Below are positions 4,600 to 20,828 of a stretch of 64,000 nucleotides of DNA, in pieces. Origin of the DNA: an uncultured bacterium (GTDB lineage Bacteria; Omnitrophota; Omnitrophia; Omnitrophales; JACQLI01). Position 1 is the stretch's first letter. Each line of letters begins with the position of its first letter. The stretch is from NCBI GenBank assembly GCA_964372875.1, contig CAYJTB010000002.1, positions 21,576 through 85,575 on the forward strand, written 5' to 3'. The position numbers were made by a program, and so were the translations under genes. The notes below the pieces were generated by a model. That model made no database searches and was not told the origin of the DNA. It worked only from the letters and a program-made list of their open reading frames with translations.

Positions 4600-4612
4600 C
4601 CCTCAACTTACT

Positions 4613-6104: not shown

Positions 6105-9100
6105 TTAAGCAGCGATGGCCATCTGTTTTGCGGCCTCGAAGACCTTCCAGATCGCTTCCACTAAGGCAAAAGCCGAGCTCTTTATTTTGAAACGGGATCC
6201 GTTGATCTCAAAGAGATCTTGTTTTTGTGAAAGGCTCAGAACATCTTGAGCAAGTTTGGTGGAAGCACCTGACATAATGACAAGATAAGCAGCGCGTTTA
6301 GCTTCTGGAATAGAATAGGTCACAGAACGCAGACTTTTTCCAAAGTCTTCGCCAAATTCAGCGATCTTATCAGACAGGTTTTCCGGAAGGCTCAAGACAA
6401 AATAACGTCCAAGAAACGTTTGAAATTTAACCTCACCTTCAGGAAAATATTGCTTGTGCGCTTCATGGGCTGCCTTCAAGACTTCCTTTCGTAAACCGAT
6501 CCAATCGGGCGCGTAAACAAGATTTGCCCGGCCATCGGGGACAAGCTTTGTAAGTTCATCCATTTGTTTTGTGAGTTCGTCCTGATCTTGCTGATTCTTC
6601 ACCGCCTCCGGGGTTACAAAAATACTCACTCTGGCTTTCTTATTTTCGACGAGGGGAACAATAAGGCCTCGAAGCTCTGAAGTGCTTGGAACATAATCTA
6701 AAGTCGCCACATGCACTCCGGGTTGATTCGCTCCTTTTGCCAACAATGTAAAAATGCGAGCGATTTCACTATTAAATTGAATACTCTCTGTTTCCGGTCT
6801 CTCACTTTGTTTGGAAAATTCAATTAAAGCTGGAAGAATTTCTTCATCGTCAGGACTAAAGACCCACCGCATTTGTTTGGCGATTTCCAAGATAGCCCGA
6901 ACGACCGTCTTTGGATCCATCTTAGGGTTAGAATAGGGACGATGTTTTACAGCCCTTTCCATCAAAGAGAGGGTGAGAACCTCAGTTTTGGGGGAAATTC
7001 TCATTTCCGAGCGGCCGGCTTCAGTGTCCGGCGGAGTCGGAGGCACTTGAGGAGGCTGGCGGAATAAATTCTCAAGGCTCGCCCGGTCCTGCTCTTTCAA
7101 AAGGTGAAGCGCAAAAATTCGCCCGGCAAGGGTTTCAATAAGTTCTTCCATGGCCGGCGTGAGCGGTTGCGATTTCACCCGAAACATCTTTATGTATTCA
7201 GAAGGAAGCGGAACATTATTCGCAATATCTGCAAAAGATTTGTTATCCGTTAATACAGCCACCGGGTTTTCCTTTTCATACTTACCTCCCTGAACATTTT
7301 GGAAGTAAAACTTTCGGGCGTCTTCAGGGGTGAGTTCACCTTTCAAACGGAGAAGCTTTTCAATGAGCTCAGTTCGTGGCTCAAGCGTCGTAAGAAAATC
7401 AATGAGATCTTTATAATTCCTGTCAAACCTTGCCAGCGGTTCGGTAAGACTCCAAACCTCGCTGCGCATTTCGGAGCGGTTCGGATTTTCGCCTTGACCG
7501 GGAAGGCCCTTCTCCAAAAGGTTGCGGATAAACAGAGCCGTGCTAAAAAGAAAATGTTTGGCTTCTTCATTAGGAACATCTTCCTTTTGGCTCGCTGTAT
7601 TTAAGGCGCTTGCGTAGCGCATGAGTTCGCTGCTAAAACGCGCAAGAACGCTTTGAGGATCTTTGTATTCCGGATTCGTTTCGGGATGAGTGAAGGAATA
7701 GGTTAGAGTCGATTCCCCCCCCGCCGTTTTTTCGGATTCGATCAAAGTGACTTCATTCTTATCGGGTTCAACCGTTAAATTCCAGTAAAACCCGTGCCCT
7801 TCTTCCAATTCCACGCTGTTGGACACCACGATTTTTCCGCCTTCCCCTTTATCAGACGGCAGTTGTTGCAATTGGATTTTATATTCAACGCCGTTCGCCG
7901 CCGTGAGTTGGGTTTCGTAAATATTTTTGGTATGAGTAGGCGCAATTAAAGGTATGCGCTCTGAGGTAGAAATGACTTTATGATAATAGGGAGAGGAAAT
8001 CAGTTGAGAGGGGATAGATTGGGCTTCGCCCTTAGAAGAATACAGGAGCGTCTCGGCGGGTTTTTCCGGGTTAGGTCCCAATACAAGGTAAAGCTCCGTT
8101 TCCAATTGAGTCTTGGCACCCTCGGGCACGGTGATCTCAACCTGCCCCTCTTCCGTGACCTTTTGAAGCGTCTCGACTAAATGTAAAATTCGGCCCACCA
8201 AGACATCGCCTTTTTCCGCTTTAAACAAAATGTCCTGAGGCCGAACCTCTTTTTCTGAAAAGGGCGACAGTTTGACTCGGTTGAGAAGCATTTTGACTTC
8301 ATAGCCAAAGCCGCTGGATTGTTCAGAAATGCTTTTGATTAACTCTTCACGATGGGCCAGCTCCCACAATTTGGAGAGGTATTGCTTTAATTCTTCATCA
8401 CTGGCCCGCGCCTCGGAACGGAAGTTGCGGGAGTCTGTGTGAGGATCATACATAGGTTCAAGGGCCCGACGGATGGGGTCAAAGACGAAAAAATGTTCCA
8501 GATGAAGACTGGGTTTATGGATCCCGGCATAGGCGTCCTTAACACGTGACGGTGAAAATACTATTTCCACGGCGCCAGCTATCGCGAGGATATTGCTGTA
8601 ATCTCCCGATCGAAACCAACGAATCAGCTCGTCTTTCGTGGGAGGAAATTCGAGCCTCCGATCTTCCAACGTCTTTTTCCATTCGTCAGGAAGATTTTCT
8701 TTCTTATACTGTGAAGCCATTTTTGAAAGAGTCTCCAAATCTCTTTCGTCAATCAGCCCATCCAAAACAGGATCGGCGATAAAACGTGGCGGTTTTCTCG
8801 GTTCGCGAATCTCGTAGAGCCTCCATTTCATACCGGTCGGTGAAAACTCGAGCACAAACCGCTTTAATTGTTCTTCCAGGCCCGCTTGATTTTCCGGAGA
8901 ATCTTCAGCCTGAAAAAGAAGATGATCGGGAGTCCACCGGTTTACCTTGTAGCCGCCGCCTCTAAAATATTCGGTTTCTGTTGCCTTGAGGTAGTCAAAC
9001 GCCGCCATTTTTTCTACGGGAAGCAGCTCCTTGATCCGATTTTGGAGGGCTTTAATAGCATCGCCGACGCTCATTCCTTTGCGCGCTTCGGGATCATCTG

Positions 9101-12100
9101 ATTCAAACAAGCCCGCGGGCGTAAGAAGCTTAGGAGTAGAATTCGCGACTTTGGCGGCGAAGTTGCCTTGGGGGTCAACTAATTTTTTCCTAAGAAGCGG
9201 TTGAGAAAAATCACCGGCATTCCTCAACCCTTCGATCGGGAGTTTGAGATCAAGATAGATGGGATAACGGGTCGAATCCACGATAAGAAACCGGTTCTGC
9301 CAGCCTAAGTTTGCGCGTTCTTTTAAGGAAACGATGCTGAAATTGTTAGAAATTGCCTGCTCCATGGTCGTTGTGGTGTGTCCGCCGATGGCGAAATCCA
9401 CTCCGTTTTTTTCTACATAATCAGCAATCGCACGTTCGGAGTAATCGCGGCTCCAAAGCGTTTCGAGAAGAGGGTTTGTTTGGCGCTGTTCTTTCTGCGA
9501 TCTTGGAATTCGCGTAAGGTCTCTTACTTCGGGCGTGAAGAAATTAATAACGTCTTTCAAGCTTTGAATGTTGTGAACGGCTCCCGCATGAGCTAACAGA
9601 ATTTTAGTCCGGTCATCTTCAGAATGAATTTTTAAAACAACGGGAGAGGCCTGTATGTAGTTCTTAAAACCTTCGAGGGCTTCTTCGGAAAATGGTTTTC
9701 CTTCCCCGAACACCTCTTTTTCAAAAAATGAATTTTGGGTTGTAAGACGCTTTTGTTGCCAGATAGCAAGCCCTCCCATTTCGTGAGGGAGATGAGCATA
9801 GTCATGATTGCCGGGAAGATAATGCACCTGAACAGGGAAACGGCGCTTCAACGCCAAAATTTGCAGCAAGGTTGTGAAGGAATCCGCATAAGCCTTGGGA
9901 TCTTCGAAGAGTTCGCTTCGATGAGTATGAATCGCATCGCCCGTAATCACAAGATGAGCGTTTTTATCTTTGCGGAGCGCCCGTTCGATATCGACTTCTT
10001 TTAAAATTGCCGCCAGATTTTCATAAGCGCCGTGAAGATCGCCGATCACAATCAGCCGGTCCGCGTTTTTAATTTCTACCAAAGCGCCCGGTTTTCCGTG
10101 ATCATCGAGCCACCGGACGCTGCGCTCCCGATTATTGATCTCTTCTCCCTGAGAGTGAAGCGGGTACGCATCAAGTGCCGTCACCGCCCGCGCGAAAAAT
10201 TTTTCCGCACCCTCTTTCATAAAGAATTCGTACATTTGTTCTTTATCCAAAACCGCGTCCTGCTTCGCTCGCACCTCGGCCCTCGCCCGCTCAGGCGAGG
10301 ACGGAGGAGTACCCGAATCCAACCGATTTGGGCGCACCTCGGCTCTTGCACCGGATTCTCTGAATTTTTCGGTTTCTAAAGTGAGGGATTGACCGTTCCC
10401 AGTTTGTGGATAATGACGGGCGGATTCAAGGACATTGATTTTCGAAGGACGGCTTACGATTCCGAAGTGCGTCTCGAGTTCTCCAAGGAGGCGGAAGATA
10501 ACTTCGTCTTCTTGAATGCTTGGGCTATAAGATCTCTGCTTCATGAAGTTCAGAGCTCGTTTGATCGTTCGAGTGTCGTAATTCTGAACGACGTATTGAA
10601 CGACCTCATTATCTTTACTGCGCACCTCGGCCCTCGCCCGCTCAGGCGAGGACGGAGGAGTACCCGAATCCAACCGATTCGGGTGCACCTCGGACCTTCG
10701 ACTCGGCTCCGTCCCGAGCGTAGTCGAGGGGCTCAGGTCAAAAACACTCGGCCCTGAGCGAAGCCCTTCGGACTGAGTCGAACGGGCCTCGGAGCGGGAT
10801 TGTAAGCTGGCGGGAATGGGATCGAGATCCGTTTGCTTAAGTTCTTGAATTTCTAAAGATTCATGATTCGGTGTAATTTCTCGCTCCCAAAGGATCAGAA
10901 CGCCCGGGGCTTTTAATCTTTCCCAAATCATTCTCGCTCTTTCCTTGATGGTCTCCGAAGTCCAGTGTTCTCCCATCCAGGTGTTTCTCCAAAAGAAGAT
11001 ATGAGAAGGCGCAATAAATTCTGGATGAGCGGGAAGATCAAACAGATTTCCGTAAATTCCTTTGAATTCAACATCGATTCGGGAACGGTCCGTTTTGGGT
11101 AATTCAAGAAGCCGGTCTTTGATTACTTGTTCAAGCTCCAGAAGCGCTTCTACACTTTGGTTTACCACCTGTAAAACGAGATGGATTTTTTGTCCCTTGC
11201 CTTTTAGGGTTTTTAGTTCAGCGATCACCGTTTCGACGGTCTCCATCAATTCATCCCCTTGCTTACCCGGTCCCAACGTCGTCACGACCATCCCACGCGT
11301 ACCCGCTTCCACTAAAGAATGAACGGCCGAACGCAAAGCTCTTTGCTCGTTCTCTTCTAGAGGAAAATTCGAATCCGAGATGGCTTGTCCTTGATCCAAT
11401 CCTGTTTGAACCAAACGACGAATCTCTTGTTCGTCTAAGTCGGTGTAAGGCAGGAAAAAATCTACGATTTTACCCGGCTTCCATAATTCAGGCCGGAAAG
11501 TCCCGCGCCGCATTTCCAATTGCTGCGCCACAATTTTTTCCAAACGTTCTCTTTTCGTGTCACTCCGCACCTCGGCCCTCGCCCGCTCAGGCGAGGACGG
11601 AGGAGTACCCGAATCCAACCGATTCGGGTGCACCTCGGACCTTCGACGCGGCTCCGTCCCGAGCGTAGTCGAGGGGCTCAGGTCAAAAACACTCGGCCCT
11701 AAGCGAAGCCCTTTGGGCTGAGTCGAACGGGCCTCGGAGCGGGGGGCCGTTATTTTATCTTTAATAATATTATGGTTGACTTTTAATAAATCATTTGTTA
11801 CCCTTTCCCCGTTCTGAAATGCTAAGGTATGATGAAAGGAGAACAAGCCTGAGGTGAAAATATTCTGGACTCCAAAACGGTTGGAGGCGATGTCAAAAAC
11901 TTCTTTAACGCTGTTCCAGGCATTTTTGGTGGCAGCAGTAGTTGGTGGCGTGTTAGGCAAAATTCCGAATGCCTGGCTCAAGTTGTTTTTTCTGTCGGCG
12001 ACGTTTAGCTTTTTGGTATTAGGAATTATAGTGGCCGATTGGCCTTTAATGAAAAAAGAGGAGGCCTGAAATGTTTGCTCTGATCTTTGCTTTGGTTCTG

Positions 12101-15100
12101 ATATTTGTAATTGCTGCTTGGATTGGAATCGAGCAGTACCGCCTGAAACACCGGCGTCATTAATCGTTTCCGCATTTCGCATCTCGGCCCTCGCCCGCTC
12201 AGGCGAGGACGGAGGAGTACCCGAATCCAACCGATTCGGGCGCACCTCGGAACGGGGGCCTTGGTTATCTTCAAACCCGCCGGCGATCTTCAAATCCTGA
12301 AGGCGATCATCAAGCCGCTCCACGGCGTAGTCAAGCCCCTGGAGAAGGTGGGCTTCCTTTTCCGGATCATTTTGCATGGAATTTTTTAAATCGGCGATCA
12401 GGGATTTGGCTTCACCGGCTTCACGGAAAATGGTTTCGACAATCTCCGGACTCACTCTCTGACCCGTATTATTGTGATGCTTCAACGCCTCCATCAGATT
12501 TCCGCGCAGCTTAATCAAGCTTTGATCCAGCAAACGGCGCAATTCCTCAGGCGTCTCGCCTCCTCCCTCAAGGGGCTCCGGAGTCGGTTGCGCCCGCACC
12601 TCAGCGCGGGGCAGCGCTAGAAACGTAGTTTTATTTAAATCAAATTTTTCTTGACTATAAAATATATCCTTGTTAAACTCTCCTTTAATGAAAGATCGAA
12701 CACGACGGCTTGAGTCTGGTAAAATGCTACTGGACGTCTCAAAGTATTTCTCGACAGTTACGGGCATCGGAAGCCTGGCGGGCGGTTCCGTGAATTGGCG
12801 GTTAGCCGCTGTAGGTCTATTCATGGCGTTCGTATCTTGGTTTGTCGGATTTGTGACAATTCCTAAAGATGAGGAAACCAAATGACTAATTTTGAAATCA
12901 CGGCCATTGGCATCGGGATATTCGCCCTGGCGGTGGGCCTGACGGTCTACCTCACCGAGCGCTGGGACTCGATGCGCCATAACTCCCGTAAGCCCAAACA
13001 CGCCTAATTTAACATCCCCGCTGTTTTTCTCACTCCGCACCTCGGCTCTCGCCCGCTCAGGCGAGGACGGAGGAGTCTCCGGCCGGTCAGCCGGAGGCAC
13101 CTCGGCTCTCGAGTCGGCGCGGGTGCGTTCCTGCCAACTCAAAATGATTTTTTGGATTTCTGGATGAAGTCGAAACGCCGCTGATCGAAACATTTCGAGC
13201 GGAGGCGCCTCCGACAATTGTAATTTTGAGTCGATTCCCTCTTTCCCCTGAGACTCTATCGATCTTTGGAACTCCGATAAAAAATAAAATGCGTAAATCC
13301 GCTGAGTAAGATTGTCTAACCCCGAGGCCCAGGCCCGAAAGTTGCCAAGGCCGAGCTGTATTTCCTTTTCAAGAATCCGGATAGGATCGCCCTGCGCCTT
13401 TAAAATTTCCTCATACCTTCCTTCGAACAATGCCCTTAGGCCCTGTGCGTCGCGCCCTTTCGCGGCACGTAAACTCGATTGAAAACGCTTGGGAAGAAAC
13501 AATCCTTTTTCCTTCCCCCACTTGATGGCTTCTTCCTGTCGCGATGTTTCATAAAATTCATTTGCCATAAGGATGGCAACAAAGCGTAGAATTTGTTCGT
13601 CATATTTTGATAAGAACCGGTTTACCGAGTCCCGGGGCCAAAAAGGTTGCGGGTTTCCCTCAAAAAGGGAAGCGGCCTCATTTCGGATGATGGGAATTCC
13701 TTCCTTCAATAGTTCCTTGTGTTCCGGATCACTCCACTTGAAAGCGGCACCCCCCCAAGCTTCACGGATGATGTCGGAGGCAAAGCCTAGAAAAAAATAA
13801 TCCAGAGAATCAAGATTTTGAATGGCATTCCATCTCCAATAAAGATGCGCATCATTGATGCGTATCGTCATGGTTCCTGATGGGTCATCTTTTTTCTTTG
13901 CGTAAATCATTCCTTGTCTTGCCAGTTCAGCAGGCAGCGGCTCCGCTTTCTTGACCGCTTCCTTATAGTTCTTGAGAACCTCGGGATGCGGGTATCCTTG
14001 TTCAATCAACCAATCAATCGTTGCCGAAATGGCTTGTTTGATACTTTCCAGATTGGGATCAACTTTGAAACGCAATTGTTTTGGCAATTTTGCCGGTGTG
14101 CTTTGGGTGGATGAAATACCTTTGAGGTCTCCGACGATTTTTACAATTTTTTCGAGTTGATCATTCGTCAGTCCTAGAATTCCCTTTTGATTTTTTATTT
14201 TTTCTTCAAGGATTCGCCGCAGCTCCTGCACGGTCAATGTTTCACTTCTGTAAAGAAGCCTCAAGCGATCTTCGTTTAAACGGTCATGAAATTTTTGTGG
14301 AATACCGCTCTTGGCTTTGATGTTATCCCTCAGCATCTCGAGCTTCCTTTTTTCGTCCGTTCCGTGAGAATCTGCCCGCATCTCGGCCCTCGCCCGCTCA
14401 GGCGAGGGCGGAGGAGTACCCGAATCCAACCGATTCGGGTGCACCTCGGACCTTCGACTCGGCTCCGTCCCGAGCGTAGTCGAGGGGCTCAGGTCAAAAA
14501 CACTCGGCCCTGAGCGAAGCCCTTCGGACTGAGTCGAACGGGCCTCGGAGCGTGAAGTTTGATTTTTATTATAATATTTATTGATATAAAATGAAACTCC
14601 TGCTAGACTCCCCAGCGCATAAGGAGCTCTATTCATGAAAGAAATCTTTTCACCCGATCGGCGGGAAGTTGCAGCACGAACGTTATTCGATACCTGGAAG
14701 CTATCCGTCCCCGCCGCTGTAGCAGGAGGGTTCTTCCTCCAATTCAATATTTTTGTTAAAATCGCATTTGTGGTAGGGCTTTTAGCCGGATTTGCCTTGG
14801 CATTTTTTATGTTCCCTCCGGAATCAAGGGGAAAAGGAGGTTGAGATGTTAGTTGCTGTGAGTATTTTATTGGTGTTGGTTCCCGCCGTCCTTCTTGCAG
14901 GAATGTATTTAGAACAGTACCTGAGGAAGCGTCGTCACCTACATTAGAAAGGAGCGGCTGAGATGGACGTTGCTTTGATTTCGATATTTGGGATCCTTGT
15001 AGTGATAGGGACGTGGTTTGGGATTGAGAAGTACCAGGAACGCCGGAAGAGACACCTTCATTAAACCTTCCGGTATTCTTCTCACTCCGCGCCTCGGAGC

Positions 15101-18100
15101 GGTTGGCACCTCGTGCTAGTTGGTCGGCTTTTTGAATTTTCTTTTTCAAGAGATTAAGGTTAGGAATCGCCTTTTCACTCGCGATCTTGTCTAAAGTTTC
15201 AAGAGCAAGTTTAGAAAAGCCATCTTCGGCAAGTTTTTCAAATGCGTCTTGACTTTGTGCCTGTTCTATTAAACCCTTCTTAAATTGTTCAACGATGTAA
15301 ATTGAAAAATCTTCAACCCCTTTTCTACGAAAGTTCGGAATCAACAAAGATTTCTTCGTCTCATCAAGAACGAAAAAATTGGAACTCCATTTCCTAATAA
15401 ATCGGATATGTGACGAATTGATAAATCTTCCGGTTTGTGGGTCTTTTCGGAAAAGATCTATCAAATATTCTTTCAATTTTGCGCCATTCTTCTCTTCTAT
15501 TATCGCCTCAAACAAAGCGTGATTTTTCCCAGCATCCTTCTCCGGATCCCCTAAATAACTAGCATCTTCAAACTCTTTTTGTAACGATGGAAAAATTTTC
15601 TTGAGCAGTAGCAGCTCTTCCTCAAACCTCTTCTTCAATCCTTTGGATTGGATAATGGGCAATGGAAGCTTCCGAAATGCTTCTATTTTTTCATCCCCCA
15701 TGCCGTAGGGATTTATATCTATCGAATTCCGAATAGCGTGAAGAGCCTGAACATTTTCGGGAATATCTAAATTCAATTTCTGAATCGCTTCCACAAAAGC
15801 AACGTCTTTAGTTCTTTCGCTCGCCCGCACCTCGGCCCTCGCCCGCTCAGGCGAGGACGGAGGAGTACCCGAATCCAACCGATTCGGGTGCACCTCGGAC
15901 CCTCGACGATCAGAAGTTAGAAGTCGGGAGTCAGATATCAGATTTGCCTCCGAGCGGGAAAACACTATTTCCTTATTCGTCAAAAATATATTGACTTTTA
16001 AGGAATATGGATATACACTCATTGCCGCAAAAGGAGAGTAAGTTTTGTTTACACCGCTTCGAAGATTTGAATATGGTAGGATGCTGTTGGCATTGATCCC
16101 CGTGCTTGTGGGCTCGGCAGTGGTAAGCCGTGTGTTTACAGAAGCACCGCCGTTCTTTAGAATAGGGGTGGTATTGCTGATATTAGTCATAAGCGTGCTT
16201 GGCTTTATTATTTTACCCGCATCAATGGAAACTAAAGAAGGGAGGCGTTGAAATGATAGATACCGCGACGGCAGCTCTTCTGGGTGTTTTTTTAATGTTG
16301 ATTGTGATGATGTCTTGGTTTGGGATCGAGAAATATCTGGAGCGGCGGAAGAAGACTCATTGATAACACCCGGCAGCTCAAAATCAGCGAGAATTTCTTT
16401 TTGAGTCGTCGGAGCGGAGCGGGCGTCTAGGACAGGCGTCTCAACCGTGATGGTTCCAAACGGGATCACGATCGGCGCGCCGTAGATATTACGAAGTGGT
16501 TTGTTTTCCACATTGTCCCACACGATAGCTTTCTCGCCCGTGCGGCTTAAAATAAGAACAAATCTTCGGTCAGAGGCGTAACTACTTTGATTGATAGCAC
16601 GAATAATTCGTGACGCCGCCATCCTCTCATCTTTTGCTGTCTCAATAATTGCCTGAAGAACACTTTTAATTTCTTGAATAATGATTTTGGGCCGGACGTT
16701 TTGATCACGCGTTGTCATCCGCATCCGGATGGCATTGGAGATTTCTTTGATCGCAGGCTCGAGGTAGTTTACATCAAACGAGGTTTTCTTTTCGCCGAGA
16801 AGAGACGAGATGTAATCTTGAGACGAAGTTTTTTCTGTGATGCGCGGAGAGAGGATCGTGTAAGAAATTCCTTTTTTTCGGAAGGCGCGCGAGAGTCCGT
16901 CGGCGTGGAAACCGCCGGTGATGAGGACGGTGACGCCGTTCTCCCTCATCTTGCTCTTCTCCTCCCGAGGGGGAGAAGAGACAGTTGAGGGGGGATTTAA
17001 TATTTTTTCCACCATCACATCTTCACGTTTTTTGGCAAGTTGGTAGAAACGCATTGCCTGTTGGTAAAGATATTCAATCGCCCGGATGTTCGCAGGAATG
17101 ATTTGAGACGGACCCAAGTTTGTTTTGTCATGAAGAGATTGCATATCAATAAGGTAACGGACAAGCGGGCGGTCGATCGTTTCAGCTTGCTGGATTTTGA
17201 CGTAATCTTTGGGCGTAAGTTCCAAGTCAAAGAGCCGCTCGAAAAGTCCGCCGCGCTGGGCAAGCCCGACCAGTTTTAATTCTTCCGGTTGGGCAGCAAC
17301 GGCTTGGATTAGATTTTGAAAGAGCCGCTCGATTTCACCAAAAAGCCGTTCCGCATCGAGTTCGCTTTGTAAAACAGCCGCCTCCAAATAATGTGTGAAG
17401 TAGGGATAGTGATCAAAAGAAAATCCCTTATCGACTGTGGAGACTACAAGGTATTCCGCCAAATAACGCGGCAGATCATTTTTATTAAAACCAGGATCGT
17501 AGACCATTCCCGTTTGGTAAGGGGAGAACGAGAGGTTTTCAAAGGCGTGGACAAGAACGGGATGAACCCCGATTTCTTTTAAGTCAGCGATTAATTTTTG
17601 ACGGTCCGTTTGAATTCGTTCAGGATCAAGGCCCGACTCCGCCTCCTGAAGCCTCAAGAGCCTGATCATCTGCGGCCAGTCTTTTTGGCTCTCAAAGTTT
17701 CTAAGATCCACGCCCAGAATTTGTTTGGTTCTTCGCTCGAGTTCAAAGGCATAAGAGAGAAGTTCCATCTGGCCGGCCTCAAAAGATTCATTCGTTCGGA
17801 GCAGTGTTCTCGTATGAGGCGTTAGCAGATGAGTTCCAAGCCGGTCGAGTTCGCCGTCCAGTCCTTTGGTGAAAGTATTCGTTTCATTTTGCCGGCTCAT
17901 TACAATTTGAAAACTCTCTAGGTTATCCCGGTAAAGATCAGGATCTTCAATTCCGTAGGCGGGGATTTTTTCCTGTGATTCAATGAGGAAAAGTTCCGCT
18001 CCCGTCAGTTCGCCCTTTTCAACAAGCTTTTGGGCAACCTCCACGTTCAACTGGTTTTGATCAAAAAATTTGAAGTAGTCGGGGTTGAGTTTTTCGCCGG

Positions 18101-18431
18101 CGCCTTCAATGAATAAAGCGCGAACGCCGTATTTCTCGTCCAGAAATTTTAGAAGGGCAAAAATCTTTTTCTGTGTCTCGGCGTGTGCGTGAACCGATTG
18201 GATATGAATGAGAGGAATATTTTCTGTTTTTGTGTCGGGAAGAAATGCTTCTTTAATCGAAGCAAGCTCCTGGGGAATTCCGAGGGGCATCAAAGACAAG
18301 GGAAGATTTTCTATGCCGCCTTCGGCCTTCGCGGGTGGAACGAGGATGGACGATGCAATGACACACATCGCGACCAAGAGAGATATAAACTTTTTATAAG
18401 TCTTCATTAATGTCATAAATCTAATTTTCAA
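6105..18431 (-). CDS. Giant secreted modular protein (4108 aa). It has a signal peptide, a Tiki/ChaN/TraB-like N-terminal domain, several unknown modules and a calcineurin-like metallophosphatase module. REP-encoded linkers and low-complexity linkers separate the modules.
   Basis: This is a single stop-free frame of 12,327 nt and the only minus-strand gene in the window. The N-terminus KFISLLVAMCVIASSILVPPAKA is a signal peptide. IHIQSVHAHAE...ALFIEGA...VLITGGFHADG (about 16850-18250) resembles the Tiki/ChaN fold. LIVIGDLHG...VITGDAIH...LPGNHDY...GGHTTT (about 9350-10130) are metallophosphoesterase motifs. The start could be TTG 18431, ATG 18416 or ATG 18407. Confidence 0.75.
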   Translation of the reverse strand: MKIRFMTLMKTYKKFISLLVAMCVIASSILVPPAKAEGGIENLPLSLMPLGIPQELASIKEAFLPDTKTENIPLIHIQSVHAHAETQKKIFALLKFLDEKYGVRALFIEGAGEKLNPDYFKFFDQNQLNVEVAQKLVEKGELTGAELFLIESQEKIPAYGIEDPDLYRDNLESFQIVMSRQNETNTFTKGLDGELDRLGTHLLTPHTRTLLRTNESFEAGQMELLSYAFELERRTKQILGVDLRNFESQKDWPQMIRLLRLQEAESGLDPERIQTDRQKLIADLKEIGVHPVLVHAFENLSFSPYQTGMVYDPGFNKNDLPRYLAEYLVVSTVDKGFSFDHYPYFTHYLEAAVLQSELDAERLFGEIERLFQNLIQAVAAQPEELKLVGLAQRGGLFERLFDLELTPKDYVKIQQAETIDRPLVRYLIDMQSLHDKTNLGPSQIIPANIRAIEYLYQQAMRFYQLAKKREDVMVEKILNPPSTVSSPPREEKSKMRENGVTVLITGGFHADGLSRAFRKKGISYTILSPRITEKTSSQDYISSLLGEKKTSFDVNYLEPAIKEISNAIRMRMTTRDQNVRPKIIIQEIKSVLQAIIETAKDERMAASRIIRAINQSSYASDRRFVLILSRTGEKAIVWDNVENKPLRNIYGAPIVIPFGTITVETPVLDARSAPTTQKEILADFELPGVINESSSAAPDISRSQTKTSSQSTLKKHPEELPSRYLSFQRLPSLVSIDAGKIIKPSTLMTNISNTTPILKNGGASVNTRLTTAEPTSTGINANSILPYSNLRSGVNKTYSPFAAMSVYPYSLKVNIFLTNKEIVFSRSEANLISDSRLLTSDRRGSEVHPNRLDSGTPPSSPERARAEVRASERTKDVAFVEAIQKLNLDIPENVQALHAIRNSIDINPYGMGDEKIEAFRKLPLPIIQSKGLKKRFEEELLLLKKIFPSLQKEFEDASYLGDPEKDAGKNHALFEAIIEEKNGAKLKEYLIDLFRKDPQTGRFINSSHIRFIRKWSSNFFVLDETKKSLLIPNFRRKGVEDFSIYIVEQFKKGLIEQAQSQDAFEKLAEDGFSKLALETLDKIASEKAIPNLNLLKKKIQKADQLARGANRSEARSEKNTGRFNEGVSSGVPGTSQSQTTSLSLQGSQISKSKQRPSQPLLSNVGDDASSGTVLNTFLQEGRREPTPIKYSQQLTSQPPFPLDSGGNIKNAKANPAKSPTTNAILTKILNWRKNPPATAAGTDSFQVSNNVRAATSRRSGEKISFMNRAPYALGSLAGVSFYINKYYNKNQTSRSEARSTQSEGLRSGPSVFDLSPSTTLGTEPSRRSEVHPNRLDSGTPPPSPERARAEMRADSHGTDEKRKLEMLRDNIKAKSGIPQKFHDRLNEDRLRLLYRSETLTVQELRRILEEKIKNQKGILGLTNDQLEKIVKIVGDLKGISSTQSTPAKLPKQLRFKVDPNLESIKQAISATIDWLIEQGYPHPEVLKNYKEAVKKAEPLPAELARQGMIYAKKKDDPSGTMTIRINDAHLYWRWNAIQNLDSLDYFFLGFASDIIREAWGGAAFKWSDPEHKELLKEGIPIIRNEAASLFEGNPQPFWPRDSVNRFLSKYDEQILRFVAILMANEFYETSRQEEAIKWGKEKGLFLPKRFQSSLRAAKGRDAQGLRALFEGRYEEILKAQGDPIRILEKEIQLGLGNFRAWASGLDNLTQRIYAFYFLSEFQRSIESQGKEGIDSKLQLSEAPPLEMFRSAAFRLHPEIQKIILSWQERTRADSRAEVPPADRPETPPSSPERARAEVRSEKNSGDVKLGVFGLTGVMAHRVPALGEVDRQAHRQGEYPDANGRDFKISHLVSSSLGIVTNPTNQDTNAMNRPTAANRQFTEPPARLPMPVTVEKYFETSSSILPDSSRRVRSFIKGEFNKDIFYSQEKFDLNKTTFLALPRAEVRAQPTPEPLEGGGETPEELRRLLDQSLIKLRGNLMEALKHHNNTGQRVSPEIVETIFREAGEAKSLIADLKNSMQNDPEKEAHLLQGLDYAVERLDDRLQDLKIAGGFEDNQGPRSEVRPNRLDSGTPPSSPERARAEMRNAETINDAGVSGGTARFQSKQQLQISEPKQRSEQTFQASSFFIKGQSATIIPNTKKLNVADRKNNLSQAFGILPNTPPTTAATKNAWNSVKEVFDIASNRFGVQNIFTSGLFSFHHTLAFQNGERVTNDLLKVNHNIIKDKITAPRSEARSTQPKGLRLGPSVFDLSPSTTLGTEPRRRSEVHPNRLDSGTPPSSPERARAEVRSDTKRERLEKIVAQQLEMRRGTFRPELWKPGKIVDFFLPYTDLDEQEIRRLVQTGLDQGQAISDSNFPLEENEQRALRSAVHSLVEAGTRGMVVTTLGPGKQGDELMETVETVIAELKTLKGKGQKIHLVLQVVNQSVEALLELEQVIKDRLLELPKTDRSRIDVEFKGIYGNLFDLPAHPEFIAPSHIFFWRNTWMGEHWTSETIKERARMIWERLKAPGVLILWEREITPNHESLEIQELKQTDLDPIPASLQSRSEARSTQSEGLRSGPSVFDLSPSTTLGTEPSRRSEVHPNRLDSGTPPSSPERARAEVRSKDNEVVQYVVQNYDTRTIKRALNFMKQRSYSPSIQEDEVIFRLLGELETHFGIVSRPSKINVLESARHYPQTGNGQSLTLETEKFRESGARAEVRPNRLDSGTPPSSPERARAEVRAKQDAVLDKEQMYEFFMKEGAEKFFARAVTALDAYPLHSQGEEINNRERSVRWLDDHGKPGALVEIKNADRLIVIGDLHGAYENLAAILKEVDIERALRKDKNAHLVITGDAIHTHRSELFEDPKAYADSFTTLLQILALKRRFPVQVHYLPGNHDYAHLPHEMGGLAIWQQKRLTTQNSFFEKEVFGEGKPFSEEALEGFKNYIQASPVVLKIHSEDDRTKILLAHAGAVHNIQSLKDVINFFTPEVRDLTRIPRSQKEQRQTNPLLETLWSRDYSERAIADYVEKNGVDFAIGGHTTTTMEQAISNNFSIVSLKERANLGWQNRFLIVDSTRYPIYLDLKLPIEGLRNAGDFSQPLLRKKLVDPQGNFAAKVANSTPKLLTPAGLFESDDPEARKGMSVGDAIKALQNRIKELLPVEKMAAFDYLKATETEYFRGGGYKVNRWTPDHLLFQAEDSPENQAGLEEQLKRFVLEFSPTGMKWRLYEIREPRKPPRFIADPVLDGLIDERDLETLSKMASQYKKENLPDEWKKTLEDRRLEFPPTKDELIRWFRSGDYSNILAIAGAVEIVFSPSRVKDAYAGIHKPSLHLEHFFVFDPIRRALEPMYDPHTDSRNFRSEARASDEELKQYLSKLWELAHREELIKSISEQSSGFGYEVKMLLNRVKLSPFSEKEVRPQDILFKAEKGDVLVGRILHLVETLQKVTEEGQVEITVPEGAKTQLETELYLVLGPNPEKPAETLLYSSKGEAQSIPSQLISSPYYHKVISTSERIPLIAPTHTKNIYETQLTAANGVEYKIQLQQLPSDKGEGGKIVVSNSVELEEGHGFYWNLTVEPDKNEVTLIESEKTAGGESTLTYSFTHPETNPEYKDPQSVLARFSSELMRYASALNTASQKEDVPNEEAKHFLFSTALFIRNLLEKGLPGQGENPNRSEMRSEVWSLTEPLARFDRNYKDLIDFLTTLEPRTELIEKLLRLKGELTPEDARKFYFQNVQGGKYEKENPVAVLTDNKSFADIANNVPLPSEYIKMFRVKSQPLTPAMEELIETLAGRIFALHLLKEQDRASLENLFRQPPQVPPTPPDTEAGRSEMRISPKTEVLTLSLMERAVKHRPYSNPKMDPKTVVRAILEIAKQMRWVFSPDDEEILPALIEFSKQSERPETESIQFNSEIARIFTLLAKGANQPGVHVATLDYVPSTSELRGLIVPLVENKKARVSIFVTPEAVKNQQDQDELTKQMDELTKLVPDGRANLVYAPDWIGLRKEVLKAAHEAHKQYFPEGEVKFQTFLGRYFVLSLPENLSDKIAEFGEDFGKSLRSVTYSIPEAKRAAYLVIMSGASTKLAQDVLSLSQKQDLFEINGSRFKIKSSAFALVEAIWKVFEAAKQMAIAA
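10270..10342. repeat. REP/MITE-like element, short form (two hairpins), in frame in the giant ORF
   Basis: CGCACCTCGG CCCTCGCCCGCTCAGGCGAGG ACGGAGGAGT ACCCGAATCCAACCGATTTGGG CGCACCTCGG. The element is bounded by a 10-nt direct repeat. On the minus strand it reads RAEVRPNRLDSGTPPSSPERARAEVR. Confidence 0.9.
10622..10797. repeat. REP/MITE-like element, long form (short form plus a second hairpin-rich sub-element), in frame in the giant ORF
   Basis: Nearly identical to 11566-11741 and 14377-14552. On the minus strand it reads RSEARSTQSEGLRSGPSVFDLSPSTTLGTEPSRRSEVHPNRLDSGTPPSSPERARAEVR. CCTCGG-containing 10-mers occur at both ends and at the junction of the sub-elements. Confidence 0.9.
11566..11741. 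repeat. REP/MITE-like element, long form
   Basis: Same sequence as 10622-10797 apart from a handful of substitutions. It lies immediately upstream (+ sense) of nested cassette A. Confidence 0.9.
11776..11804 (+). promoter_or_regulatory. Sigma70-like promoter of nested cassette A
   Basis: TTGACT (11776-11781), a 17-nt spacer, then TACCCT (11799-11804), with AT-rich sequence upstream. Confidence 0.5.
11854..12069 (+). CDS. Nested small two-TM membrane protein A1 (71 aa), antisense to the giant ORF
   Basis: GTG 11854 (or ATG 11890). There is a basic N-terminus, two hydrophobic helices (LTLFQAFLVAAVVGGVLG / LKLFFLSATFSFLVLGIIVA) and an acidic tail KKEEA. It is a paralog of B1, C1 and D1. Confidence 0.6.
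   Translation: MKIFWTPKRLEAMSKTSLTLFQAFLVAAVVGGVLGKIPNAWLKLFFLSATFSFLVLGIIVADWPLMKKEEA
12071..12163 (+). CDS. Nested single-TM peptide A2 (30 aa)
   Basis: The SD GAGGAGG lies 6 nt upstream of the ATG. Peptide: MFALIFALVLIFVIAAWIGIEQYRLKHRRH. Confidence 0.6.
   Translation: MFALIFALVLIFVIAAWIGIEQYRLKHRRH
12178..12250. repeat. REP/MITE-like element, short form
   Basis: CGCATCTCGG...GGGCGCACCTCGG. It lies 15 nt downstream of the stop of nested ORF A2. Confidence 0.9.
12651..12679 (+). promoter_or_regulatory. Sigma70-like promoter of nested cassette B
   Basis: TTGACT (12651-12656), a 17-nt spacer, then TAAACT (12674-12679), with AT-rich sequence upstream. ATG 12688 lies only about 9 nt downstream, so the leader may be very short. 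Confidence 0.5.
12670..12885 (+). CDS. Nested small two-TM membrane protein B1 (71 aa from TTG 12670; more likely 65 aa from ATG 12688)
   Basis: MKDRTRRLESGKMLLDVSKYFSTVTGIGSLAGG...LAAVGLFMAFVSWFVGFVTIPKDEETK, with the same architecture as A1, C1 and D1. Confidence 0.55.
   Translation: MLNSPLMKDRTRRLESGKMLLDVSKYFSTVTGIGSLAGGSVNWRLAAVGLFMAFVSWFVGFVTIPKDEETK
12882..13007 (+). CDS. Nested single-TM peptide B2 (41 aa)
   Basis: The ATG overlaps the B1 stop (ATGA), with the SD GAGGAA 5 nt upstream. Peptide: MTNFEITAIGIGIFALAVGLTVYLTERWDSMRHNSRKPKHA. Confidence 0.55.
   Translation: MTNFEITAIGIGIFALAVGLTVYLTERWDSMRHNSRKPKHA
13036..13105. repeat. REP/MITE-like element, variant short form
   Basis: It has the same ends (CGCACCTCGG / GGCACCTCGG) and the same first hairpin (CTCGCCCGCTCAGGCGAG). 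The second hairpin is replaced by a different self-complementary sequence (CTCCGGC CGGTCA GCCGGAG instead of ACCCGAATC CAACC GATTCGGGT). Confidence 0.85.
14377..14552. repeat. REP/MITE-like element, long form
   Basis: Near-identical to 10622-10797. It lies immediately upstream (+ sense) of nested cassette C. Confidence 0.9.
14581..14609 (+). promoter_or_regulatory. Sigma70-like promoter of nested cassette C
   Basis: TTGATA (14581-14586), a 17-nt spacer, then TAGACT (14604-14609), with AT-rich sequence upstream. Confidence 0.5.
14635..14844 (+). CDS. Nested small two-TM membrane protein C1 (69 aa)
   Basis: The SD AAGGAG lies 8 nt upstream of the ATG. Sequence: MKEIFSPDRREVAARTLFDTWKLSVPAAVAGGFFLQFNIFVKIAFVVGLLAGFALAFFMFPPESRGKGG. 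Confidence 0.65.
   Translation: MKEIFSPDRREVAARTLFDTWKLSVPAAVAGGFFLQFNIFVKIAFVVGLLAGFALAFFMFPPESRGKGG
14846..14947 (+). CDS. Nested single-TM peptide C2 (33 aa)
   Basis: The SD AAGGAGG lies 5 nt upstream. Peptide: MLVAVSILLVLVPAVLLAGMYLEQYLRKRRHLH. Confidence 0.6.
   Translation: MLVAVSILLVLVPAVLLAGMYLEQYLRKRRHLH
14963..15064 (+). CDS. Nested single-TM peptide C3 (33 aa)
   Basis: The SD AAAGGAG lies 8 nt upstream. Peptide: MDVALISIFGILVVIGTWFGIEKYQERRKRHLH. Confidence 0.6.
   Translation: MDVALISIFGILVVIGTWFGIEKYQERRKRHLH
15826..15898. repeat. REP/MITE-like element, short form
   Basis: CGCACCTCGGCCCTCGCCCGCTCAGGCGAGGACGGAGGAGTACCCGAATCCAACCGATTCGGGTGCACCTCGG. It lies upstream (+ sense) of nested cassette D. 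Confidence 0.9.
15991..16019 (+). promoter_or_regulatory. Sigma70-like promoter of nested cassette D
   Basis: TTGACT (15991-15996), a 17-nt spacer, then TACACT (16014-16019), with AT-rich sequence upstream. Confidence 0.5.
16045..16251 (+). CDS. Nested small two-TM membrane protein D1 (68 aa)
   Basis: TTG start with the SD AAAGGAGAG upstream. FTPLRRFEYGRMLLALIPVLVGSAVV...RIGVVLLILVISVLGFIILPASMETKEGRR. Confidence 0.6.
   Translation: MFTPLRRFEYGRMLLALIPVLVGSAVVSRVFTEAPPFFRIGVVLLILVISVLGFIILPASMETKEGRR
16253..16363 (+). CDS. Nested single-TM peptide D2 (36 aa)
   Basis: The SD GGGAGG lies 7 nt upstream. Peptide: MIDTATAALLGVFLMLIVMMSWFGIEKYLERRKKTH. Confidence 0.6.
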   Translation: MIDTATAALLGVFLMLIVMMSWFGIEKYLERRKKTH

Positions 18432-20000: not shown

Positions 20001-20024
20001 CCGTCATGACGAATTTGAGGAGCA

Positions 20025-20804: not shown

Positions 20805-20828
20805 AATGAAGGAGAATGATTACATCTA

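Follow-up and report, generated by a model that had tools for sequence, protein, structure and literature searches.

The seven copies of a hairpin-forming repeat found in a giant gene of an Omnitrophota bacterium are best explained, on sequence comparison, as belonging to a family of palindromic DNA elements, short and rich in GC, that sit in the host reading frame where the modules of Omnitrophota giant genes meet. The copies lie in a 64-kb stretch of DNA (the window). Its giant open reading frame, 6105..18431(-), holds four short and three long copies on its sense strand, all in one orientation and one frame. The repeats reveal a module-boundary motif for which no description was found for Omnitrophota giant genes.

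The giant gene (6105..18416(-)) encodes 4,103 aa from an ATG at 18416, and the open frame reaches a TTG at 18431. The protein is identical to database protein P0001, a member of the Omnitrophota giant-protein family. It consists of a signal-peptide-like N-terminus, a conserved N-terminal domain, about 12 unrelated modules and a conserved C-terminal domain. The N-terminal domain (aa 45-640; 16512..18299(-)) has invariant residues including Q/H in HIQxxH, EG and GGFH, and its predicted fold bears a weak likeness to the EreA/ChaN/TraB/Tiki superfamily. The sole Pfam match in the giant protein is a calcineurin-like metallophosphatase domain in one cargo module (aa 2792-3019; 9375..10058(-)). The C-terminal domain (aa 3812-4108; 6108..6998(-)) is common to the syntenic orthologues. 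The host gene corresponds to the 'multi-enzyme metabolic cluster' class of Omnitrophota giant genes described in two preprints (bioRxiv 10.64898/2026.06.07.730766; bioRxiv 10.1101/2023.11.21.568195), with which it shares many unrelated enzyme domains in a single very long ORF. The terms junction motif, linker and junction repeat do not appear in the available text of either.

Unit coordinates are given in window numbering with both junction motifs counted in. The first copy is a short two-hairpin unit, GSEVH-PNRLDSGTPPSSPERA-RAEVR, at aa 844-869 (15825..15902(-); covariance-model match 15837-15896, 74.5 bits). It is followed by a long unit at aa 1294-1352 (14376..14552(-)), in which a three-hairpin sub-element (RSEAR-STQSEGLRSGPSVFDLSPSTTLGTEPSR) precedes the two-hairpin unit and a T>C change (S>P) makes the hairpin 2 stem longer. 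A variant short unit, RAEVP-PADRPETPPSSPERA-RAEVR, occupies aa 1775-1799 (13035..13109(-); 57.3 bits), and in it another palindrome (CTCCGGC...GCCGGAG) substitutes for hairpin 1; RAEVP-type variants are also present in other genomes (L090, L134). Next come a short two-hairpin unit, RSEVR-PNRLDSGTPPSSPERA-RAEMR, at aa 2060-2085 (12177..12254(-)), and two long units, one at aa 2231-2289 (11565..11741(-)), whose three-hairpin sub-element carries four substitutions, 4/4 nonsynonymous, and one at aa 2546-2604 (10620..10796(-)). The last copy is a short two-hairpin unit, RAEVR-PNRLDSGTPPSSPERA-RAEVR, at aa 2696-2721 (10269..10346(-)), where a single synonymous change disrupts one hairpin 1 stem pair. 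All seven matched the covariance model, which was built from the wider element family.

The sequence-only reading had placed seven copies of these forms at these positions, with two hairpins in each short unit, a different palindrome in the variant copy and one orientation, frame and translation throughout, and all of this held. Start-to-start spacings are 351, 945, 612, 858, 1341 and 1449 nt, all divisible by 3. An unfiltered covariance-model scan of the 64-kb window returned just the seven copies and opposite-strand echoes of their palindromes, and none outside the giant gene, as had been claimed. A 29-mer from the core, with at most one mismatch, gave seven matches against none expected from shuffles. 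The canonical cores are 97% identical to each other and no similarity was found among the flanking modules, in line with the earlier description of near-identical copies between unrelated flanks. The copies have a GC content of about 0.66, the giant gene as a whole one of 0.475. Substitutions within copies comprise five nonsynonymous and one synonymous. Window ORFs of at least 150 aa yielded no transposase or recombinase domain.

The element runs in the order junction motif, hairpin 1, ACTCCTC(A/C)GTCCT, hairpin 2, junction motif, with the central stretch as a conserved spacer separating the hairpins. Its 5' start falls within a junction motif (...GAG GTG C), after which come an outer helix, GAGG paired with CCTC, and hairpin 1, of 9 bp. 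The 3' arm of hairpin 2 closes with the AGG codon that opens the second junction motif (AGG GCC GAG GTG CGN). The downstream motif belongs to the element, with its R codon inside that arm. Unit size is 60-80 nt, and about 177 nt for the long form. Three window copies have an extra, lineage-specific three-hairpin sub-element joined at a further junction motif, which agrees with the view of the long form as two sub-elements.

The CGACCTCGG-type 10-mer on either flank codes for a junction motif, R-[S/A]-E-[A/V/M/I/L]-R. With one mismatch allowed, the 10-mer CGCACCTCGG occurred 20 times against 3.6 expected, mostly within the giant gene, and in 60 family proteins R[SA]E[AVMIL]R was counted 293 times, with 8.6 expected. 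Synonymous codons are used for the residues of the motif (CGN or AGR for R, TCN for S, GAR for E), which places the constraint on the peptide. The five-residue motif delimits modules across the Omnitrophota giant-protein family and is selected at the protein level. The element is present at 7 of the 12 junctions of the window gene, and the motif stands alone at the other five, as RSEAR at aa 1111 (15087..15101(-)), RAEVR at aa 1942 (12594..12608(-); CGC GCT GAG GTG CGG), RSEAR at aa 3338 (8406..8420(-)), RSEMR at aa 3652 (7464..7478(-)) and RSEMR at aa 3807 (6999..7013(-)), the latter just before the conserved C-terminal domain.

The flanks had earlier been described as CCTCGG-containing direct repeats that might be target-site duplications. 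The direct repeats are indeed present, but they do not amount to a simple or demonstrated target-site duplication: they are codons of a family-wide motif that occurs solo at five window junctions and, with varying choice of synonymous codons, hundreds of times in relatives, and the downstream motif belongs to the element. The weak Tiki/TraB/EreA-like fold of the N-terminal domain raises the possibility that the junction motifs are candidate polyprotein cleavage sites. Cleavage-point information is lacking, according to the available text of the 2023 preprint (bioRxiv 10.1101/2023.11.21.568195).

Folding gave a divided result. The 193-nt long form alone stands out (z -4.15, 0/200 shuffles, for the copy at 10620..10796), while the folding energy of the short form is unremarkable against shuffles of its own GC-rich sequence (z -1.2 to -1.9); the case for structure therefore rests on the perfect stems and on covariation across genomes. 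Among 17 distinct copies, 94.7% of stem cells are paired, against 78.7% in shuffles (0/500 as high) and 34-54% in slid-register controls. Compensatory changes on both sides were found in 13 of 23 stem pairs. The stems contain 351 Watson-Crick, 5 G-U and 7 A-C pairs; being almost all Watson-Crick, they show no RNA-strand signature. The encoded peptides are radically different between genomes (SLNRSDS, SLKRLAS, SLNPIGS, SLPRSEA, SSPERA). The repeats thus conserve base pairing and not the peptide. The sequence-only reading had likewise seen structure kept while sequence was not, and had taken this to point to the DNA or RNA level. Hairpin-templated repair can keep the complementarity of a perfect palindrome, so covariation alone is no proof of selection.

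Comparison with relatives revealed a patchy distribution. Two positional orthologues, P0002 and P0005, share the neighbours of the window gene on both sides; they have 15-16 plain junctions, and the element is absent from both. The P0002 module homologous to window aa 1353-1774 has plain RAEVR at its edges. Across 84 family loci (1.2 Mb), the covariance model found the element only in L001 and L040, and overall it is carried by the loci of only 3 of about 82 species. Scanning 265 junctions for folding energy led to the same picture, and element-type peptides occur in about 3 of 135 further family representatives. In metagenome data, homologous copies lie in giant ORFs on at least eight other contigs. 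Of 30 model matches, 29 are sense-strand and in frame within giant ORFs. The exception is a full antisense copy in the dnaX linker of L001, cut short by a 48-nt indel in the related L002. As an independent parallel, P0050, from a clade with the junction motif GARL, has a 126-nt, 96%-identical inverted-repeat unit between GARL...GARL double junctions.

The near-identical copies, the orthologues without the element, the covarying stems and the 5:1 ratio of nonsynonymous to synonymous changes bear out the earlier proposal of a mobile or gene-converted element as opposed to domain duplication: the repeat behaves as a nucleic-acid-level element that was amplified recently or gene-converted. We lean towards a palindromic repeat in the style of RPE or REP elements, specialised for these junctions. 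It probably spread through recombination or through template switching where junctions have the motif in common. Because both its ends are junction-motif codons, the element could be copied from junction to junction, whether by ectopic recombination, by gene conversion or by a switch of template during replication, with the shared stretch of about 10 nt as the point of exchange. The hairpins would promote stalling and hence template switching. Motif-guided copying would give the same orientation and frame every time without a selection step. The added 21-54 residues would be tolerated as a P/S/T/G/R-rich spacer in a linker, flanked by two junction motifs. Against such copying, 10 nt of homology is short for RecA-dependent recombination. 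The lack of copies outside the giant gene in the window, of a transposase or recombinase domain among its ORFs of at least 150 aa and of a notable folding energy in the short form also weighs against this reading. Furthermore, architecture, spacer and junction link are conserved across several genomes, and a selected function would give the same pattern.

On one such reading, which we consider unlikely, the hairpins form a structure selected for its effect on giant-gene expression. Stable GC hairpins exactly at module boundaries might slow ribosomes for co-translational folding or processing, or might shield the 12-kb mRNA or divide it into segments, in the way that REP elements stabilise the mRNA upstream of them, with near-identity within a genome stemming from gene conversion. 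Strict placement at junctions, the 29/30 sense-strand copies and the architecture and spacer kept across genomes with covarying stems fit this reading, as do the GAGG nucleotides of the junction motif that join the outer helix and the tendency of hairpin loops to mutual complementarity (68% against 55% in shuffles). However, about 97% of family members, both syntenic orthologues included, have no element, five window junctions do without it and one copy is antisense in dnaX. The nearly pure Watson-Crick stems, with G-U no commoner than A-C, are atypical of RNA helices. No Rfam family matched the element, and no U-tract lies 3' of the hairpins, so they are not intrinsic terminators.

It is also improbable that the elements serve a cassette system as recombination sites, attC-like in function, at which modules are inserted or shuffled in frame and a putative recombinase or HUH nuclease recognises the hairpins by their structure. 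Module content does differ greatly between the positional orthologues (4,103, 4,909 and 6,005 aa; few modules in common), relatives have recurring modules in changed order, structure is kept while sequence is not, hairpin 1 and hairpin 2 variants combine as mosaics and the two hairpin loops tend to be the reverse complement of one another. Yet the element is missing from most junctions and from most genes whose modules are just as shuffled; its termini are direct repeats instead of inverted core sites, neither the window nor the surroundings of the related loci examined yielded a recombinase, and a module co-travelling with an element was never seen.

An ordinary linker repeat is disfavoured as very improbable. 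Here a P/S/T-rich peptide would be selected, for example as a spacer separating two cleavage or recognition sites, with nucleotide identity due to recent duplication or gene conversion and hairpins incidental to GC-rich codons. The constant frame between two peptide-motif copies, some peptide similarity across genomes (xSGTP, DPTDPGTPQSL) and the short-form folding energy, no better than shuffles, would suit it. Fully compensated stem columns beside radically changing residues, the excess of nonsynonymous changes, the unrelated peptide encoded by the antisense dnaX copy and the orthologues without the element argue against it. Finally, repeats collapsed or chimerised in a short-read MAG are hardly credible as the source: at about 177 nt the long copies are larger than the k-mers typically used and the homologous copy in L040 adjoins a run of N, which indicates that such repeats do break assemblies and that module order between copies could be wrong, but the seven flanks are distinct and unique, the 12.3-kb frame is unbroken, the N- and C-terminal domains are rightly placed with synteny kept and homologous elements are present in independent ENA, NCBI and JGI assemblies.

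Among known systems, the GC-clusters or 'byps' of yeast mitochondria are likewise short GC-rich palindromic mobile inserts with matching short flanks in AT-richer coding sequence. Byps are skipped by translational bypassing and often have stops inside, whereas the Omnitrophota copies are stop-free in the host frame and bypass is unneeded. Integron attC sites, like these elements, mark the edges of exchangeable units and conserve structure instead of sequence. An attC site is a single imperfect hairpin from inverted core sites, is found between genes and is the substrate of the IntI integrase; the Omnitrophota element has two independent hairpins, direct-repeat ends and an in-frame position, and no integrase was seen. 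REP and REPIN elements, mobilised by RAYT transposases, are GC-rich hairpins of 20-40 nt, often paired, homogeneous per genome and divergent between genomes with compensated stems, and the present elements resemble them in all these features of the hairpins. REPs are extragenic, a REPIN is two inverted REPs forming one long hairpin, and they co-occur with a RAYT gene. In contrast, the Omnitrophota elements are intragenic and in frame with two hairpins of unlike stems, and the window yielded no Y1/HUH transposase domain. MITEs are small repeats that sometimes yield in-frame fusions (PMC10969869), and the element shares with them small size, multiple copies and the lack of its own coding capacity. 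It has no terminal inverted repeats, and its flanking direct repeat is the host junction motif, partly the element's own, with no demonstrable target-site duplication. As to the earlier label 'REP/MITE-like', the element has neither the termini of MITEs nor the extragenic location of REPs.

The Rickettsia palindromic element (RPE), cited earlier as precedent, is apt as an analogy. Both are short hairpin-forming palindromic repeats in frame within protein genes, with near-identical copies per genome and a tolerated extra peptide segment (PMC10969869). With a length of about 150 bp, RPEs make up ten families, each encoding a conserved peptide, and are spread over many unrelated genes and intergenic DNA. 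Compared by description, the Omnitrophota element measures 60-80 nt, or about 177 nt as the long form, has junction-motif codons at both ends, belongs to another host phylum and conserves pairing instead of peptide; unlike the dispersed RPEs, it is bound to one gene family and one type of site, the junction motif, in 29 of 30 matches.

All seven copies of the element lie in one open reading frame on the minus strand (window 6105..18431), which runs to 4,108 codons from a TTG, or to 4,103 aa when counted from the ATG at 18416 (the giant protein P0001). A repeat search of the window recovered the four short copies (10270-10342, 12178-12250, 13036-13105 and 15826-15898) and the three long copies (10622-10797, 11566-11741 and 14377-14552) that had been read from the sequence alone. 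The start-to-start spacings (351, 945, 612, 858, 1341 and 1449 nt) are each a multiple of three, as expected from the single frame claimed for them, and all seven copies are in frame and free of stops. The short form is translated as RSEVHPNRLDSGTPPSSPERARAEVR, to which the long form adds RSEARSTQSEGLRSGPSVFDLSPSTTLGTEPSR; both translations agree with that sequence-only reading. Its other descriptive claims also held. The canonical cores are 97% identical, about 12 modules between the copies have no mutual similarity, both hairpins are present and the copy at 13035-13109 carries the substituted palindrome. No copy was found elsewhere in the 64 kb, where R1, a covariance model of the wider element family, matched just the seven with its filters off. 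A core 29-mer with at most one mismatch gave seven matches in the window against none expected. The perfect stems of the element are 7-9 bp long and the GC content is about 0.66 in the copies compared with 0.475 in the giant gene. Compared with shuffles of its own GC-rich sequence, the folding energy of the short form was unremarkable (z -1.2 to -1.9) and the 193-nt long form was the only form found to be clearly exceptional (z -4.15). No homologue of the long-form sub-element was found by blastn and tblastn in 1.68 Mb of related loci. The core, searched as an exact 26-mer, had no match in genome, metagenome or viral contig collections, from which the window's genome is absent, and exact searches with P0001 and with the protein of a window neighbour likewise gave nothing. 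The Rfam 15 covariance models included no family for the element and gave one chance-level match (E = 0.82) elsewhere in the giant gene.

The 10-mer that the sequence-only reading took for a direct repeat has a different nature: read as its reverse complement, CGCACCTCGG supplies part of the codons of the pentapeptide R-[S/A]-E-[V/A/M]-R, which (as R[SA]E[AVM]R) occurs 17 times in P0001, including solo occurrences without the repeat at aa 1111, 1942, 3338, 3652 and 3807. Analysis of 60 proteins of the family revealed 293 junction motifs (R[SA]E[AVMIL]R) against 8.6 expected from residue shuffles, and relatives have as many as 23 of them in one protein, at apparent module boundaries. The constraint on the motif is at the peptide level, since its codons vary synonymously (R as CGN/AGR, S as TCN, E as GAG/GAA). 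Other short motifs have the same role in distant clades, namely GARL[A/S/T] (as GARL[AST], 20 times in P0050 and 13 times in P0057), ASLG (P0025) and ARMS (P0044), and this clade specificity suggests co-evolution with a recognising factor. A reading of the motif as an internal Shine-Dalgarno sequence (GAGGTG) or as a start codon (GTG/ATG/TTG at position 4) was rejected: RSEAR, with GCG, is dominant in many relatives, the motif of locus L001 is coded by synonymous codons that break the Shine-Dalgarno sequence, and the motifs of other clades are unrelated. Signal peptides at module starts after a junction were also considered and found to be anecdotal cases without significant enrichment (7.8% versus 4.4% at the loosest threshold; Fisher p = 0.63 at threshold 2.2).

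The proteins homologous to P0001 are Omnitrophota giant proteins of 2,400-7,100 aa, which have in common only an N-terminal domain of about 600 aa and a C-terminal domain, with unrelated Pfam enzyme domains between them. P0001 has this arrangement, with a conserved N-terminal domain of about 550 aa (residues ~40-600) followed by variable cargo. The family is very large, with 60 word-indexed matches, 206 loci among the GTDB species genomes and, at 50% identity and E at most 1e-3, 9,590 cluster representatives. The N-terminal domain had no sequence match in Pfam or PDB and no Foldseek match in PDB, and its AlphaFold2 model has a mean pLDDT of 78.9. The Pfam ChaN/Tiki family PF04187 matched the N-terminal domains faintly (three of 13 members, E at least 0.09), and HIQxxH and GGFH are invariant in the domain. 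Modules rich in S/T/N/Q/G/P (0.45-0.54) with no family match were observed at aa 1116-1293, 2086-2230 and ~690-843 (window 14553-15086, 11742-12176 and 15903-16364, minus strand), and similar "SEKxxG..." modules are present in P0002 and P0005, two further members of the family. The idea that these S/T/N/Q-rich modules are real genes read antisense or out of frame was rejected, every other frame being full of stops.

P0002 (locus L084) and P0005 (locus L083) are positional orthologues of the giant gene. All three loci have the same neighbours (window 409-6068 and 18604-22001): one side holds a ROK regulator, TatC and a GATase1-like protein, and the other holds genes of sulfate assimilation (APS kinase, PHP, PAPS reductase, ATP sulfurylase). 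The giant genes themselves differ greatly in length (4,103, 4,909 and 6,005 aa) and in module content. In the comparison of orthologues that had been proposed earlier, P0002 and P0005 carry 15-16 plain RAEVR junctions and lack the element. Their junction codons are mostly CGC GCC GAG GTG CGG, with some synonymous variation. The module at window aa 1353-1774 has elements on both sides, and the homologous module of P0002 is bounded by plain RAEVR. The element is dispensable for the gene family. Elsewhere in the window, positions 48865-51192 of the plus strand encode a protein of 775 aa that contains a TLC ATP/ADP transporter domain (E 4e-13); such a transporter would be in keeping with an energy-parasitic, host-dependent way of life of this bacterium.

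A structured nucleic-acid element, and not a protein repeat, was the earlier expectation, and the wider family agrees with it, in that the stems covary and the encoded peptides diverge. In P0014 (N-terminal domain about 30% identical), the giant protein of locus L001, repeated mini-spacers are enclosed by "double junctions" that lie 18-22 aa from each other. The DNA of each mini-spacer holds two perfect 9-bp hairpins whose sequence is unlike the window's, and one pair of L001 copies differs by a compensated change (GCTCAGAAC/GTTCTGAGC versus GCTCCGAAC/GTTCGGAGC). A search of metagenome contigs with the shared 3' part as the pattern (CAGTCCTT-N15-AAGGGCCGAG) gave 13 copies in which the inner stem is perfect, 12 of them in frame in open frames of 1,264-4,214 aa. 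The element starts with the junction motif (...GAG GTG C(A/G/C)), followed by an outer helix (GAGG/CCTC), hairpin 1 (9-bp stem, 5-nt loop), a spacer (ACTCCTC(A/C)GTCCT) and hairpin 2, the 3' arm of which ends in AGG. This AGG serves as the R codon that opens the following junction motif (AGG GCC GAG ...), and P-RSEAR is in some copies encoded by hairpin 2 itself. The hairpin 1 stem of the window (CCCGAATC/GATTCGGG) and the RAEVP-type variant both recur in contig L134.

Seventeen copies were aligned (alignment A4) and tested against the structure ((((.(.(((((((((.....))))))))).).))))...(((((((((.....))))))))). The window rows are WIN_a, GAGGTGCACCCGAATCGGTTGGATTCGGGTACTCCTCCGTCCTCGCCTGAGCGGG---CGAGG; WIN_14376, GAGGTGCACCCGAATCGGTTGGATTCGGGTACTCCTCCGCCCTCGCCTGAGCGGG---CGAGG; WIN_13036, GAGGTGCCTCCGGCTGA---CCGGCCGGAGACTCCTCCGTCCTCGCCTGAGCGGG---CGAGA; WIN_12178, GAGGTGCGCCCGAATCGGTTGGATTCGGGTACTCCTCCGTCCTCGCCTGAGCGGG---CGAGG; and WIN_10270, GAGGTGCGCCCAAATCGGTTGGATTCGGGTACTCCTCCGTCCTCGCCTGAGCGGG---CGAGG. 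The rows from relatives, named by locus and position, are L097_2161, GAGGTGCACCAGGATCCGACCGATCCTGGTACTCCTCAGTCCTCGCCTCGGTCGGAGGCGAGG; L001_16307, GAGGTGCGCGCAGCCCGATTGGGGCTGAACGACCCTCAGTCCTTGAACCCGATCGGTTCAAGG; L001_21146, GAGGTGCGCGAAGCCCGAATGGGGCTGAGCGACCCTCAGTCCTTGAACCCGATCGGTTCAAGG; L090, GAGGTGCCCCCGGCTCCGACCGAGCCGGGGACTCCTCAGTCCTTGAATCGGTCGGATTCAAGG; L097_9700, GAGGTGCACTCAGCCCCGACCGGGCTGAGTACTCCTCAGTCCTTGAAGCGATCGGCTTCAAGG; L112_10924, GAGGCGCACCAGGATCCGACCGATCCTGGTACTCCTCAGTCCTTGAAGCGGTTGGCTTCAAGG; L112_13246, GAGATGCACCAGGATCCAACCGATCCTGGTACTCCTCAGTCCTTGAAGCGGTTGGCTTCAAGG; L134_9009, GAGGTACACCAGGATCCGACCGATCCTGGTACTCCTCAGTCCTTGCCTCGATCGGAGGCAAGG; L134_9747, GAGGCGCACCCGGCCGGAGCGCGGCCGGGTACTCCTCCGTCCTCGCCTCGGTCGGAGACGAGG; L134_10305, GAGGTGCCCCCGAATCCGATCGATTCGGGGACTCCTCAGTCCTTGCCTCGATCGGAGGCAAGG; L141_4027, GAGGTGCACCCGGCCGCGATCCGGCCGGGCAGTCCTCCGTCCTCGTCTCGGTCGGAGGCGAGG; and L148_3035, GAGGTGCGCTTAGCCCAATCGGGGCTGAGCGACCCGCAGTCCTTGAAGCCAATCGCTTCAAGG. 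Standard pairs fill 94.7% of the stem cells compared with 78.7% in shuffles, none of 500 of which reached the observed value, and slid-register controls gave 34-54% pairing. Both-sided changes were found in 13 of the 23 pairs, and compensatory cells numbered 62 against 21 expected. Conservation is highest at the junction nucleotides (0.97), followed by the spacer (0.89) and the stems (0.71-0.79), which are variable yet paired. The peptides encoded by hairpin 2 are radically different (SLNRSDS, SLKRLAS, SLNPIGS, SLPRSEA, SSPERA), and internal substitutions among the window copies comprise five nonsynonymous changes and one synonymous change. Analysis of pair types revealed 351 Watson-Crick, five G-U and seven A-C pairs. 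Because the pairs are nearly all Watson-Crick and G-U is no commoner than A-C, there is no signature of a one-strand RNA helix, and the element looks like a DNA palindrome. Overall, the element is maintained as base pairing and is a clean natural example of an open reading frame in which constraint on the nucleic acid overrides the peptide that it encodes.

The loops of hairpin 1 and hairpin 2 also tend to reverse complementarity (A4 columns 17-21 versus 50-54), for example CGACC/GGTCG and CAACC/GGTTG. Loop-loop pairing was 68% compared with 55% in shuffles (0/500) and 17-50% in slid controls; the window copies do not follow it. This complementarity could represent a kissing-loop interaction or opposite-strand recognition.

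Comparison of the related loci revealed a patchy, junction-bound and lineage-specific distribution. When 83 loci were scanned for perfect hairpins and 265 junctions for folding energy, the window and L001 stood out almost alone, and among 84 family loci (1.2 Mb) only L001 and L040 were matched by R1. L001 has four copies in its giant gene and one in dnaX, and L040 has two copies, 96% identical, one of which abuts a gap of Ns. On the metagenome loci R1 gave 17 strong matches (E below 1e-6) together with weaker ones and opposite-strand echoes. Among strong matches of the model, 29 of 30 are on the sense strand and in frame in giant ORFs. Element-type double junctions were found in about three of 135 further family representatives. 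The element has been amplified recently within genomes. In L040 an N run (13481-13494, a scaffold gap) adjoins the element copy and the giant ORF is apparently split there; repeats of this length can break or scramble giant genes in short-read assemblies.

The dnaX copy (L001:2495-2574; 62.3 bits), the one exception among the 30, is a full two-hairpin element, antisense and in frame, in the linker region. In dnaX of the related locus L002, 48 nt of the element are missing and hairpin 1 is kept, so that the two loci represent an indel polymorphism of the element outside a giant gene. The L001 copy keeps GAGGTGC-like and GCTGAGG-like ends; the junction-like termini belong to the element, because this copy still carries them. 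The giant protein (6,478 aa) is identical in L001 and L002, and the two records share 98.85% identity over 33 kb. Identity drops to 88% upstream of about L001:6319, in dnaX, recR and their neighbours, and this boundary is either a strain recombination boundary or a chimeric assembly.

An independent instance of the same phenomenon, unrelated in sequence, was found in the GARL clade. Lying between GARL...GARL double junctions, a 126-nt unit of P0050 (locus L085) contains a long inverted repeat (purine-rich/pyrimidine-rich) and is present in two 96%-identical copies (L085:7749-7874, aa 1917-1958; 9363-9488, aa 2455-2496). GC-rich perfect hairpins (GGGCGGAC/GTCCGCCC, GGGCCGAC/GTCGGCCC and others) were also observed in locus L006 at 3238-3291, 7497-7553 and 8906-9493, as two-hairpin units in both orientations. 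Some lie between genes and others within an open frame of 759 aa just upstream of the giant gene of that genome; they may represent a different REP-like family in another Omnitrophota genome.

The 10 nt shared on both flanks of the element are the host junction motif. Both ends of this palindromic repeat are junction-motif codons, and what it adds to the protein is a spacer rich in P/S/T/G/R, with a junction motif on either side. The element would probably be copied from junction to junction at the ~10-nt motif, through ectopic recombination, gene conversion or template switching. Such copying would automatically be in frame and in one orientation, because the element ends match every junction of the host gene. 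It fits the flanks, since the upstream R/S codons are site-specific (GGG TCC, CGT TCC, AGA GCC) and the downstream AGG GCC GAG is constant and belongs to hairpin 2. An RNA or DNA function under selection at the boundaries between modules is a possible alternative; copying by motif homology explains the 29/30 pattern without selection or a transposase, and no transposase or recombinase domain was found among the window ORFs of at least 150 aa. It is also possible that the element is an attC-like cassette site. The integron attC forms a single imperfect hairpin from inverted core sites (R''-L''/L'-R') and has an adjacent intI/attI, whereas the element has two separate hairpins and direct-repeat ends, and no integrase domain was found in the window. 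Simple target-site duplication, for which a check had been proposed in the sequence-only reading, is disfavoured by codon-level comparison of the flanks; the flanking motifs of the P0050 unit likewise argue against a fresh duplication, because the two differ from each other at four of 12 nt and each one stays the same from copy to copy.

The junction motif is arguably a more consequential finding than the element itself. The literature on Omnitrophota giant genes raises the question of whether giant proteins are cleaved, and a 2023 preprint gives their cleavage points as unknown (bioRxiv 10.1101/2023.11.21.568195). Term searches revealed neither a junction motif nor a linker in that preprint or in a second one (bioRxiv 10.64898/2026.06.07.730766). 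The motif is a concrete, testable candidate cleavage site and offers a practical way of splitting giant proteins for structure prediction and annotation. The EreA/ChaN/TraB/Tiki superfamily is characterised by an alpha/beta fold and paired motifs that contain His, and its Tiki/TraB branch includes proteases. A self-processing bacterial polyprotein, in which R[SA]E[AVMIL]R (or GARL[AST]/ASLG/ARMS in other clades) would be cleaved by a putative cognate protease, the conserved, weakly Tiki/TraB/EreA-like N-terminal domain, is an unlikely reading. It is a reasonable hypothesis because of the faint ChaN/Tiki matches, the invariant HIQxxH and GGFH and the clade-specific motifs, which would reflect co-evolving protease specificity. 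The hairpin elements would then be selfish DNA with a "protein-level intron" strategy: each copy would bring a second cleavage site, the added peptide would be trimmed from the mature products, and the element could accumulate harmlessly in an otherwise constrained giant gene. If true, the polyprotein reading would supply the cleavage map that the giant-gene literature calls missing.

In-frame palindromic repeats are known mainly from Rickettsia. The Rickettsia palindromic element (RPE), named as precedent in the sequence-only reading, proved to be the closest analogue, being an in-frame palindromic repeat (PMC10969869). Like RPE, the element forms hairpins, with perfect 7-9 bp stems and covariation across 17 copies, and lies in frame without stops (7/7 window copies, 29/30 model matches). 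Unlike RPE, which is dispersed over unrelated genes and intergenic DNA, its window copies are in the giant gene only, and in 1.2 Mb of related loci it was found only in giant genes and in one dnaX copy. It is further set apart from the described RPE families (RPE-1..10), each with a conserved peptide, by its unconserved peptides and its different host phylum. MITEs have terminal inverted repeats, whereas the element termini are direct repeats (GAGGTGC ... GCCGAGGTGCG) and the repeat search of the region revealed no inverted-repeat pair. REP/REPIN sequences are extragenic, whereas all copies of the element are intragenic, and no cognate RAYT (Y1 transposase) was found among the window ORFs of at least 150 aa. 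A literature search for palindromic repeats in Omnitrophota found no paper apart from CRISPR mentions. We rate the element as an in-frame palindromic repeat whose site specificity and architecture had not been described before. Its two hairpins covary and are conserved in structure, and it is tied to a single type of site, the junctions between the modules of giant genes, in a phylum that is poorly known and mostly uncultured.
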